Below, piece by piece: positions 27,127 to 30,431 of a DNA stretch of 64,000 nt (positions are counted from its first letter, which is position 1; each line of letters begins with the position of its first letter). This DNA is from Acidobacteriota bacterium (GTDB lineage: Bacteria; Acidobacteriota; UBA6911; RPQK01; CBDAPI01). A program made the position numbers and the translations under genes. The stretch spans positions 5,570,345-5,634,344 of the forward strand of contig OZ240092.1 in the NCBI GenBank assembly GCA_965197285.1. Direction: 5' to 3'. A model generated the notes under the pieces. The model was not told where the DNA came from, did not search any database, and was given only the letters and a program-made list of their open reading frames with translations.

Positions 27127-27243
27127 TCCGGCAACGACCTACGTTCCCACATAGTTCCCCATGCAGTATCATCGGCGCTGGAGGGCTTAACTTCTGTGTT
27201 CGGGATGGGAACAGGTGTGACCCCTCCGCTAGAGCCACCGGAA
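27127..27243 (-). rRNA. rrf: 5S rRNA
   Basis: Minus strand TTCCGGTGGC...CACCTGTTCCCATCCCGAACACAGAAGTTAAG...GAGCGTAGGTCGTTGCCGGA. Confidence 0.97.
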
Positions 27244-27304
27244 ACTGTTAAAGATCGATGTCGTCGGGCAAACACACAAGTGTTTTGTGCGACAAAATAT
27301 TCTA

Positions 27305-30268
27305 GGTCAAGCCTCACGACCGATTAGTACAGGTCAGCTTCATCCGTTACCGGACTTCCACACCCTGCCTATCAACCTCGTGGTCTTCAAGGGGTCTTCA
27401 GGCTGGTAAACCAGCGGGAGATCTAATCTTGGGACGAGCTTCACGCTTAGATGCATTCAGCGTTTATCTCTTCCGTACTTAACTACCCAGCGGTGCTCCT
27501 GGCGGAACAACTGGAACATCAGAGGTACGTCCAACCCGGTCCTCTCGTACTAGGGTCAGCCTCCCTCAAATCTCCTACGCCCACAGCAGATAGGGACCGA
27601 ACTGTCTCACGACGTTCTAAACCCAGCTCACGTACCGCTTTAATCGGCGAACAGCCGAACCCTTGGAACCGTCTTCAGCTCCAGGATGCGATGAGCCGAC
27701 ATCGAGGTGCCAAACCTTGGCGTCGATGTGAACTCTTGGCCAAGATAAGCCTGTTATCCCCGGCGTACCTTTTATCCGTTGAGCGATGGCCCTTCCATGC
27801 GGAACCACCGGATCACTAAGGCCGACTTTCGTCTCTGCTCGACTTGTCTGTCTCGCAGTCAAGCGGGCTTATGCCTTTACACTCTTCGGCTGGTTTCCAA
27901 TCAGCCTGAGCCCACCTTTGCGCGCCTCCGTTACCTTTTAGGAGGCGACCGCCCCAGTCAAACTACCCGCCTAACTCTGTTCCTCTCCCCGATTCAGGGG
28001 ACAAGGTTAGATGCTCAATACAAAAAGGGTGGTATCTCACCATTGGCTCCACCAAACCTGACGGTCTGGTTTCAAAGCCTCCCACCTATCCTGCACATCC
28101 TGCACCGGACACCAAAGCTAAGGTGTAGTAAAGGTGCACGGGGTCTTTCCGTCTTGCTGCGGGCAACCGGCATCTTCACCGGTACTACAAATTCGCTGAG
28201 TCTCTTGTCAAGACAGCGCCCAGATCGTTACGCCATTCGTGCAGGTCGGAACTTACCCGACAAGGAATTTCGCTACCTTAGGACCGTTATAGTTACGGCC
28301 GCCGTTCACCGGGGCTTCAATTCAGAGCTTCGCACCGAAGTGCTAACCCCTCCTTTTAACCTTCCGGCACCGGGCAGGCGTCAGACCCTATACGTCGTTT
28401 TGTTGACTTAGCAGAGTCCTGTGTTTTTAGTAAACAGTCGCCTGGGCCATTTCTCTGCAACCTCCCTCGGCTCAGCCAGCTAGTGGCATCACCTAACGGA
28501 GGCCCACCTTCTCCCGAAGTTACGGTGGAATTTTGCCGAGTTCCTTAACAAGAGTTCTCTCAAGCGCCTTGGGATACTCTCCCCGTCTACCTGTGTCGGT
28601 TTGCGGTACGGCCACCTTCATTCTCGCTAGAGGCTTTTCTTGGCAGTGCGGAATCAACGAGTTACCCGTCAGATCTCTCCTCGGGGCCCTTACACGCCTC
28701 AGCAATAGCTCCACGGATTTGCCTATGGAGCCTGCCTACACGCTTCGACCGGGACTACCATTACCCGGCTCGTCTATCCCTCTGCGTCCCCCCGTCGCTG
28801 ATAACGAATTACGGTGGTACAGGAATATTCGCCTGTTTTCCATCGACTACGCCTTTCGACCTCGCCTTAGGAGCCGACTAACCCTGGGCGGATAAACCTT
28901 CCCCAGGAAACCTTAGACTTACGGCGAACTTGATTTTCACAAGTTTTATCGCTACTTATGCCGGCAGAGTCTCTTGCCTGCGCTCCAGTTGACCTTTCGG
29001 TTCACCTTCACTGCCCAGGCAATGCTCCCCTACCGCACCCAAAACCCGAAGGTTCTGAGTACCCGCAGCTTCGGTGATGTGCTTGAGCCCCGTTACATTA
29101 TCGGCACAGAGCCGCTTGACCAGTGAGCTGTTACGCTTTCTTTAAAGGATGGCTGCTTCTAAGCCAACCTCCTGGTTGTCTCCGCGTCTCCACATCCTTT
29201 CCCACTTAGCACACACTTGGGGACCTTAGCTGGCGGTCTGGGCTGTTTCCCTCTCGACTATGGAGCTTAGCCCCCACAGTCTGACTCCCGGGCTGTCGTT
29301 TCCGGCATTCGGAGTTTGGTTGGATTCGGTAAGCGGTGAAGCCCCCTAGTCCATCCAGTGCTCTACCTCCGGAACGAAACACCCGAGGCTAGCCCTAAAG
29401 CTATTTCGGGGAGAACGAGCTATAACTGAGTTTGATTGGCCTTTCACCCCTATCCTCAGCTCATCCAAGCCGTTTTCAACCGACACTGGTTCGGGCCTTC
29501 AACAGGTGTTACCCTGCCTTCACCCTGGCCAAGGATAGATCACTCAGATTCGCGTTTATTCCAGACAACTAGACGCCCTGTTCAGACTCGGTTTCCCTTC
29601 GGCTCCTCTTGATCTTCAGATTAACCTCGCTGCCTAGAATAACTAGCCGGCTCATTATGCAAAAGGCACGCCGTCACCCCTCATGGAGGCTCCGACTGCT
29701 TGTAAGTAGACGGTTTCAGGTACTTTTAACTCTCCTCGCAGGAGTACTTTTCACCTTTCCCTCACGGTACTAGTTCACTATCGGTCGCAAAGGAGTATTT
29801 AGCCTTGGGAGATGGTCCTCCCAGCTTCCCACAGGATTCCTCGTGTCCCGTGGTACTCGGGAATCCGAGCCCACTGCATTCCCTTTTGCCTACAGGTCTA
29901 TTACCTTCTATGGATCGGCTTTCCAGCGCGATTCGACTAGGTTCAGCAGTGTTTGGCCTGGTCCCGCAACCCCCGTCCAACCGTAGTCGGGCGGGTTTGG
30001 GCTGTTTCCGTTTCGCTCGCCGCTACTCAGGAAATCGCAATTGCTTTCTCTTCCTTCGGGTACTGAGATGGTTCACTTCCCCGAGTTTGCCTTCATCACC
30101 TATGAATTCAGTGATGAATGACTCCGCTTTACCGGAGCCGGGTTTCCCCATTCGGACATCCCCGGATCAAAGCTCGCTTGCAGCTCCCCGAGGCTTATCG
30201 CAGCTTGCCGCGTCCTTCATCGCCTCTTTGCGCCTAGGCATCCACCGTCTACCCTTAGTAGCTTGACC
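27305..30268 (-). rRNA. rrl: 23S rRNA (about 2964 nt)
   Basis: 5' GGTCAAGCTACTAAGGGTAGACGGTGGATGCCTAGG to 3' ...ATCGGTCGTGAGGCTTGACC; conserved peptidyl-transferase and sarcin-ricin (AGTACGAGAGGAC) sequences. The flanks form a 26-bp processing stem with one mismatch. Confidence 0.99.
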
Positions 30269-30347
30269 TAGAATATTTTGGCGCACAATCGCACCAAAGT
30301 CTTAAGCCATGTTACTTGTGGTTTTGCCCATTATGATGCAGCCAAAT

Positions 30348-30358
30348 TGTCAAAGAAC
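30348..30358 (-). promoter_or_regulatory. boxA-like antitermination element in the 23S leader
   Basis: GTTCTTTGACA on the minus strand, between the promoter and the 23S 5' end. Confidence 0.65.
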
Positions 30359-30401
30359 TTCGTGCCCTAGGAGCACAATTTGCTCAGAAGGGCAAACCAT
30401 C

Positions 30402-30431
30402 ATTTTAAGCAAGATGAAGCGCGGTTGTCAA
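30402..30431 (-). promoter_or_regulatory. Sigma70 promoter directly upstream of the 23S rRNA
   Basis: TTGACA (30431-30426), 18-nt spacer, TAAAAT (30407-30402). Confidence 0.8.

Follow-up and report, generated by a model that had tools for sequence, protein, structure and literature searches.

Within the 64-kb stretch of DNA analysed here (hereafter, the window), a 23S rRNA gene and a 5S rRNA gene, separated by a 60-nt spacer, start 525 bp downstream of mutM, a gene of the same orientation in which all three Fpg domains are present. From the upstream neighbour to the end of the 23S-5S pair, the following features can be distinguished:

30794-31693, minus strand: mutM (Fpg DNA glycosylase), upstream co-oriented neighbour (Pfam PF01149, PF06831 and PF06827, plus translation)
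30735-30755, minus strand: candidate mutM terminator, a short hairpin and T-run behind mutM, conserved in relatives
30623-30652, minus strand: promoter-like site P1, TTGCCT-N18-TATAAT (10 of 12 positions in a promoter scan), with a conserved T-rich upstream region
30560-30616, minus strand: transcribed-looking element, GTTTGTTCAAGA followed by a hairpin (alignments A1 and A2, alifold)
30436-30472: twin palindromes, GACGACTAGTCGTC twice, abutting the P2 -35; only two copies in the window
30402-30431, minus strand: promoter-like site P2, TTGACA-N18-TAAAAT (11 of 12 positions in the promoter scan), predicted start at about 30397-30395
30396-30379, minus strand: leader hairpin 1, kept by RNAalifold
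30376-30362, minus strand: leader hairpin 2, boxB-like, kept by RNAalifold
30358-30347, minus strand: putative boxA antitermination box, GTTCTTTGACAA, an exact match unique in the window
30261-30330, minus strand: 5' strand of the processing helix (segments 30330-30323, 30320-30314 and 30288-30261)
27303-30268, minus strand: full-length 23S rRNA gene (Rfam RF02541, 2930.6 bits, model positions 1-2925)
27265-27312, minus strand: 3' strand of the processing helix (segments 27312-27285, 27281-27275 and 27272-27265)
27245-27256, minus strand: second boxA-like sequence, GATCTTTAACAG, in the 23S-5S spacer, partly conserved in relatives
27126-27242, minus strand: 5S rRNA gene (Rfam RF00001, 103.8 bits)
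27087-27120, minus strand: intrinsic terminator behind the 5S gene, GCCCCTGG...CCAGGGGC plus T5, with an 8-bp GC stem

The original prediction placed mutM, and neither a 16S gene nor a spacer tRNA, upstream of the 23S gene, and three kinds of search over the 64 kb agree with it: (i) Rfam detected no SSU rRNA in the whole window; (ii) a regex scan detected no universal 16S motif there; and (iii) ARAGORN detected no spacer tRNA upstream of the 23S gene, the only tRNA of the 64 kb being a tRNA-Gln at 33700-33773 on the plus strand. A tRNA 3' of the 5S gene is also absent at this locus, and no RNase III signature of the ERLEFLGD type was found within the window. The hairpin and T-run at 30735-30755 are, judging by their sequence, likely to be the mutM terminator: relatives keep the form GTCGCTCAAAGTGACTTTTCT, and the window version is GACGCTCAAAGAGACTTTTTT, in which the stem is degenerate.

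A mutM search of genome contigs returned generic Fpg peptides (best match 46% identical) and no close relative. Relatives were instead reached through homologous proteins and, from these, the contigs that encode them. The order mutM, leader, 23S was found in all seven related contigs, which come from different samples and assemblers. Three further samples supplied long-read contigs (L082/L083, L084, L085 and L086; 0.67-5.7 Mb) in which mutM, about 500 bp, 23S and 5S follow one another without a 16S gene. The remaining contigs agree in layout and in the lack of a 16S: L090 comes from an NCBI MAG, L091 from a marine short-read assembly, and L094 from JGI. In five relatives, examined as 12.9-kb loci, no 16S gene lies within about 7.4 kb upstream of the 23S or about 2.4 kb downstream of the 5S, and no 16S motif was present among 93 loci. 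The spacer between mutM and the 23S gene is variable, with conserved islands at the -35, the -10, the leader hairpins, boxA and its flank, and the strands of the helix. In L091, the 3' part of the 23S and the downstream gene look chimeric. As for the organism, its RecA has relatives, 76-80% identical, that are labelled Acidobacteriota, and it is an uncultured, probably sponge-associated member of that phylum.

Ribosomal RNA genes are classic sites of misassembly, as the chimeric look of the short-read relative L091 recalls, and a collapsed repeat or a chimera could in principle hide a 16S gene and its ITS lying directly upstream of the 23S. Nevertheless, the source contig is a 4.04-Mb long-read-style assembly, and its mutM-23S junction is common to the seven related contigs, obtained from various samples and with various assemblers. 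In addition, contigs from runs of three independent studies and host labels continue unbroken from mutM through the leader into the 5' end of the 23S gene at flank-level (single-copy) depth, leaving no room for a 16S gene, and contigs of these runs likewise continue from the downstream, CoA-transferase-like gene into the 5S, with 0-2 mismatches in either case. In the leader, moreover, promoter, boxA and helix strand are all conserved, the last of them pairing with the 3' flank. Since contigs of three studies cross the mutM-23S junction at single-copy depth, misassembly can be excluded with near certainty, and the original view that the locus reflects real biology holds.

The proximal promoter P2 had been described as lying about 135 bp upstream of the 23S gene; its -10 was found to end 134 nt before it. 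In all relatives the -35 hexamer TTGACA is invariant and the -10 has the form TA..AT, in surroundings of variable sequence. The predicted boxA (consensus UGCUCUUUAACAA) is likewise present, after the hairpin at 30376-30362 and between the promoter and the mature rRNA, and its segment ATCTTTGACAATTTGG is invariant in all relatives. By pattern alone neither signal is significant, as the scan gave 3 promoter-like sites against 1.8 expected, and boxA-like matches with up to two mismatches numbered 8 against 3.8 expected; P2 and boxA carry weight because they are conserved in the relatives. Leader hairpin 1 shows one compensatory change, from U-A to C-G (RNAalifold). A leader-peptide attenuator before the 23S gene was considered and ruled out, given that neither the start codons nor the reading frames are conserved: the ATG of a mini-ORF at 30618 is GGG, CTG, TCG or TTG in relatives, and in the P2 leader a 9-codon ORF has, in relatives, either an indel that breaks it or no ATG.

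Two contigs of RNA origin cover this region, both with a depth of 2-4 and possible DNA carry-over. One of them, from a sponge metatranscriptome, runs without a mismatch from 30384 in the leader to 30232 in the 23S, and begins 11-13 nt past the predicted P2 start; the other runs from 30603 to 30422 and begins 11-13 nt past the predicted P1 start. Going by the sequence conservation and these two contigs, which may derive from DNA, the promoters may be in use.

The 23S gene is bracketed by an inverted repeat that had been reported as 26 bp long with one mismatch. The repeat and its single mismatch (C-U, in the core 30288-30261/27312-27285) stand; the length was too short, as the processing helix extends to about 43 bp in three segments and includes 23S helix 1. 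The duplex has an energy of -61.9 kcal/mol, compared with -26.3 ± 4.4 kcal/mol for 500 shuffles, and the helix is kept in the consensus fold of the relatives. Its strands are nearly invariant in the clade, with one change from A-U to G-U, and for this reason there is almost no covariation support for it: only 1 of 75 pairs is compensatory, and it is located in the leader hairpin, not in the helix. The terminator expected after the 5S gene is also there, and in the relatives its stem is conserved and its loop varies.

Ribosomal RNA genes are regarded as unlinked when the distance between 16S and 23S exceeds 1500 bp (Brewer et al., bioRxiv 10.1101/705046). Around this unit, the nearest 16S gene is at least 27 kb away on either side (64-kb window), and the unit therefore falls under the >1500 bp rule. 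That unlinked rRNA genes had been documented before, as the original prediction stated, is confirmed by the same survey, which includes Acidobacteria Subgroup 2, with 27 of 27 long reads unlinked (Brewer et al., bioRxiv 10.1101/705046). Mixed genomes, in which a linked pair exists alongside an unlinked one, are also on record (Brewer et al., bioRxiv 10.1101/705046), and the search for a 16S gene covered only 64 kb of the chromosome; the 23S-5S unit might thus be an extra, partial copy in a mixed genome with a canonical, linked 16S-23S-5S operon elsewhere on the chromosome. We consider this improbable: the unit is full length, every expression signal is under purifying selection across the clade, the depth of the leader equals that of its flanks, no alternative 5' junction was seen for the leader of this genome, and linkage status has been reported to be conserved at the genus level (Brewer et al., bioRxiv 10.1101/705046).

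Immediately upstream of P2 lie two perfect 14-bp palindromes, spaced 23 bp from centre to centre and 4 bp from the -35. With a chance expectation of 0.14 per window, they could be operators through which a regulator adjusts 23S and 16S synthesis to each other. The palindromes are lineage-specific, being absent at the aligned position in all seven relatives, and therefore they are not the general control device of the clade; a clade-wide operator role was rejected for this lack of conservation. As the seven relatives without palindromes have nevertheless retained promoter, leader and the upstream block described below, and as there is no third copy in the window, such a coordinating role is improbable.

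Some 220 bp upstream of P2 there is an almost invariant block of about 100 nt (30660-30560), which each locus contains a single time, in every case between mutM and the 23S gene. It includes P1, whose hexamers and even spacer are conserved in all relatives, and a hairpin with a 10-bp GC stem (30602-30593/30569-30560) around an invariant, C-rich loop of 23 nt (30592-30570). Several searches for counterparts gave the following results: (i) Rfam 15 over 30260-30800 at E≤10 returned two chance-level matches only, none relevant to the block; (ii) nhmmer found no second copy of the block or the leader in the window and 93 loci; (iii) RNAduplex gave no pairing of the block with the P2 leader, the spacer, the trailer or the 23S above that of shuffles; and (iv) in a metagenome scan the exact 23-nt loop had no match, and a degenerate loop pattern led to one JGI contig with the same layout. 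An excess depth of the block in DNA runs raised the possibility of a second genomic copy, which was dismissed in favour of co-occurring relatives, whose downstream flanks match L082- and L086-type sequences.

The block is a new, unexplained feature: it either supplies the rrn unit with an upstream promoter and a leader RNA or encodes a small RNA. In the latter case, an independent gene outside the rRNA unit would yield an RNA of some 60-70 nt whose loop is C-rich. A promoter-like site belongs to the block itself, the part that would be transcribed is conserved even better than this promoter, down to every base of the loop, and a pyrimidine/T-rich tract follows the hairpin; a stem change in L084, compatible with G-U pairing, fits an RNA on the minus (rRNA) strand. 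Small RNAs with C-rich loops, such as 6C, RsaE and the cuckoo RNAs, are a known design, which counts in the same direction. However, a 23-nt loop with a weak, displaced T-tract makes a poor intrinsic terminator, the sole RNA contig over the block reads through to 30422, and the few RNA runs that contain the block show no abundant short transcript; moreover, the block is known from this position only and has no Rfam match. On balance, a separate small RNA gene is possible, although we lean against it.

A broader proposal, which we consider rather unlikely, is that this acidobacterial clade has in the block a regulatory RNA device of a kind not yet described, reserved for 23S-5S operons that stand alone. 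If this were true, the leader might modify the polymerase or sequester a factor; alternatively, the loop of a small RNA might titrate a G-rich partner and help to balance 23S against the separately transcribed 16S.

In any case, we are quite confident that the locus is a self-contained 23S-5S transcription unit, inherited within a clade and always placed directly downstream of mutM. Its expression may be pictured as follows. Transcription would start some 130 nt ahead of the 23S, at the sigma-70-type P2 (-35 at 30431), with a second start probably some 350 nt ahead of it, at the more conserved P1 (-35 at 30652). The leader would fold into two hairpins and then expose boxA, which, by analogy with the rrn operons of E. 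coli, would load an antitermination complex of NusB/NusE and let the polymerase cross 3 kb of structured, untranslated RNA. Once made, the 3' flank of the 23S would pair with the leader into the helix of about 43 bp. Such a flank helix is the usual substrate for the RNase III-type excision of pre-23S, and we infer that this cleavage takes place here. The 5S would follow after its 60-nt spacer, and the strong intrinsic terminator would close the unit.

The stand-alone 23S-5S layout is real but ordinary, being already well documented in bacteria; because unlinked rRNA genes have been described for Acidobacteriota, it is nothing new in kind. Its value lies in being a clean, assembly-independent example from a host-associated clade of Acidobacteriota, with its signals all mapped and a fixed address next to mutM, and hence of use as a reference in the annotation of such genomes and in amplicon or long-read work on rRNA linkage. 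The unit does not answer the question of 16S:23S stoichiometry, for which the sole lead is the invariant upstream block.

Four known systems bear comparison. The rrn control region of E. coli comprises tandem P1/P2 promoters, a boxB-boxA-boxC leader and RNase III stems. The unit resembles it, on sequence grounds, in having two promoter-like sites in tandem, a near-consensus boxA after a hairpin, and a long duplex that brackets the 23S. It differs in that (i) the leader precedes the 23S and not the 16S; (ii) the promoters lie about 220 bp apart and have 18-bp spacers; and (iii) P1 is followed by an invariant hairpin without counterpart in E. coli. In Thermus thermophilus, Hartmann and Erdmann reportedly described, in the late 1980s, separate transcription units for 16S and for 23S-5S. 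In both organisms the 23S-5S operon stands alone under its own promoter, and the flanks of the 23S pair into a long processing helix, but they belong to unrelated phyla, the unit described here has no tRNA after the 5S, and it is known from sequence instead of transcript mapping. The disruption of rRNA operons associated with symbionts (PMC7761764) is alike in that a host-associated bacterium has an unlinked operon, whereas the genome studied here, of about 4 Mb and 56-62% GC (2-kb windows), is not a reduced, AT-rich one. Finally, the unlinked genes surveyed by Brewer et al. (bioRxiv 10.1101/705046) are alike in that 23S and 5S are kept together with no 16S within 1.5 kb, the arrangement is inherited within a clade, and the organism is uncultured and probably slow-growing. 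The locus described here comes from another, apparently sponge- or marine-associated, lineage of Acidobacteriota, and it adds a description of the expression signals and of the constant position next to mutM, neither of which that survey addresses.

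The locus comprises a complete 23S-5S unit behind mutM, with the following genes:

27303-30268, minus strand: full-length bacterial 23S rRNA gene (Rfam)
27126-27242, minus strand: 5S rRNA gene (Rfam)
30794-31693, minus strand: mutM, first gene upstream of the 23S in the same orientation, with all three Fpg domains
26476-27003, minus strand: CoA-transferase-related ORF of 175 aa, downstream of the 5S terminator
33700-33773, strand opposite to the 23S: tRNA-Gln (ARAGORN)

In agreement with the original prediction, mutM lies upstream of the 23S, at a distance of 525 bp, and neither a 16S nor a spacer tRNA precedes the latter: (i) Rfam detected no small-subunit rRNA in the whole 64-kb window; (ii) a regular-expression scan of the window found no universal 16S motifs; and (iii) the tRNA-Gln is its sole tRNA. 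A 6S (SsrS) RNA gene is present at 57981-58135 (minus strand; Rfam 54.1 bits, exceeding the gathering score). The CoA-transferase-like ORF keeps its position in four related contigs (L082, L084, L085 and L086; 174-177 aa), where it receives no Pfam call. Public gene calls include a 204-aa ORF inside the 23S (L001 13283-13897; window about 27797-28411), and similar ORFs are present in every relative; such calls are spurious proteins that will enter protein databases.

The absence of a 16S might reflect a collapsed-repeat misassembly, the 16S really being located directly upstream of the 23S. This possibility was confronted with contigs from runs of three different studies and host labels: they span 30269-30585 and 30559-31082, showing 0-2 mismatches, and across the conserved block between both genes the connection is made by short unitigs. 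Depth at the mutM-23S junction equals that of the single-copy flanks (40.5 in X2) and, on the 5S side, contigs span the downstream ORF into the 5S (e.g., 26874-27187). Such continuity leaves no room for a 16S between mutM and the 23S and, in consequence, misassembly is excluded and the arrangement can be regarded as real biology, as had been claimed.

The gene for the mutM protein of the window lies on a contig of 4,038,648 bp from a metagenome assembly in ENA, and the naming of this assembly points to long reads. Sequencing runs containing the window sequence include sponge metagenomes and metatranscriptomes, and RecA homologues named Acidobacteriota show 76-80% identity. Relatives were reached via mutM homologues from a protein collection and, then, their encoding contigs. 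All homologues with 79-86% identity (L082/L083, L084, L085, L086, L090, L091) are followed by about 500 bp, a 23S and a 5S, without a 16S; a JGI contig found by pattern search (L094) starts with the same layout and ends inside the 23S. At least five samples and several assemblers are represented among these related contigs, some of which are 0.67-5.7 Mb long. Where identity drops to 60-63% (L087, L089, L092), the genes around mutM are different and include no rRNA. The mutM-23S-5S arrangement therefore has a single origin, basal to a rather shallow clade, and has been inherited from then on. In L085 (11628-12883) and L086 (11561-12805), IS256-family (Transposase_mut) genes stand just downstream of the 23S-5S, where the window has a YbjQ/ECF-sigma neighbourhood. 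In L091, a marine short-read assembly, the 23S scores lower (2627.7 bits), and the stretch at about 5060-7608 (3' end of the 23S, spacer, downstream kinase gene) is unlike that of all relatives; the probable cause is a chimeric join made during assembly inside the rRNA gene.

The following signals, all on the minus strand, surround the unit:

30652-30623: upstream promoter-like site P1, TTGCCT-N18-TATAAT, within the conserved upstream block
30431-30402: proximal promoter P2, TTGACA-N18-TAAAAT, 11/12 positions matched
30396-30379: 5'-terminal leader hairpin (hairpin 1), a conserved island in the alignment
30376-30362: second leader hairpin, directly before boxA, likewise a conserved island
30358-30347: boxA, GTTCTTTGACAA
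30288-30261 and 27312-27285: inverted repeat around the 23S, with one C-U mismatch
27120-27087: terminator behind the 5S, hairpin plus T5

P2, boxA and the terminator were found where they had been predicted. As bare patterns, promoter and boxA have no significance (promoter-like sites: 3 found vs 1.8 expected; boxA-like matches with at most two mismatches: 8 vs 3.8), and it is the comparative data that carry the argument. When the mutM-23S spacers of the window and its relatives were aligned (A1, A2), conserved islands emerged amid freely varying sequence: the -35 of P2 is invariant and its -10 reads TA..AT; boxA and its flank (ATCTTTGACAATTTGG) are invariant; and GGGCAAACCACAAGTAACATG and the proximal strand of the processing helix form further islands. 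Twin GACGACTAGTCGTC palindromes (30436-30472) abut the -35 of P2 in this lineage, including DNA runs from three studies; they were rejected as the control device of the clade because none of the seven relatives carries them at the aligned position. The 60-nt spacer between 23S and 5S contains, immediately upstream of the 5S, another boxA-like sequence, GATCTTTAACAG (27245-27256, minus strand), which is nearer the E. coli boxA consensus than the leader boxA and only partly conserved in relatives.

The claimed 26-bp inverted repeat is present, with its single mismatch, but folding both 23S flanks together revealed a longer helix: a proximal part of 21+7 bp, 7 bp beyond an internal loop (30320-30314 with 27281-27275) and an outermost segment of 8 bp (30330-30323 with 27272-27265). 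Its duplex energy is -61.9 kcal/mol vs -26.3 +/- 4.4 for 500 shuffles. RNAalifold on five sequences retains the leader and flank structure, including this helix; since the helix strands hardly vary, a single compensatory change was seen, located in hairpin 1. In the 5S terminator, the stem is conserved across relatives and the loop variable.

About 220 bp upstream of P2 lies a block of ~100 nt (30660-30560, minus strand), nearly invariant across relatives and more conserved than mutM, whose proteins share no more than 79-86% identity between these genomes. P1 is followed by a short variable discriminator, GTTTGTTCAAGA and a 10-bp GC stem with a C-rich, invariant 23-nt loop (CCCTCCCCCAACCCCTGACTTGT). 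Three substitutions were found across seven distinct sequences, one of which leaves the stem paired as G-U on this strand. The block matches no Rfam family, and no convincing pairing partner was found in the pre-rRNA flanks; a coding role was rejected, as relatives do not keep the start codon. Each locus has a single copy of the block, in every case between mutM and the 23S. We tentatively read it as a further rrn promoter, upstream of P2, that is followed by a conserved leader RNA, a possibility somewhat short of even; that it is a separate small RNA gene seems somewhat less likely. Behind mutM (30735-30755, minus strand), a short hairpin plus T-run is well formed in relatives (GTCGC...GTGAC); two changes break its stem in the window, where transcription may therefore continue more often from mutM into the region of P1.

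Regarding transcription, one sponge metatranscriptome contig (30384-30232, 0 mismatches) joins leader and 23S, beginning 11-13 nt past the predicted P2 start; a second (30603-30422) begins 13 nt past the start predicted for P1 and, after crossing the block hairpin, reaches the edge of P2. Over 20 kb of the window, these RNA runs hold only two or three contigs of the organism, two of them in the mutM-23S spacer. This thin evidence is consistent with transcription of the leader.

Unlinked rRNA genes, defined by a distance of >1500 bp, occur in 37 of 71 phyla; in Acidobacteria Subgroup 2, all 27 of 27 long reads were unlinked, and unlinked genomes have fewer RNase III genes (Brewer et al., bioRxiv 10.1101/705046). 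A second survey ties the unlinked state to symbiosis (PMC7761764). It is improbable that the genome is "mixed", carrying a further operon of the linked type elsewhere. Since unlinked genes have already been described, Acidobacteria included, the 23S-5S unit of the window belongs to a known type, of which it is a well-supported and unsurprising further case.
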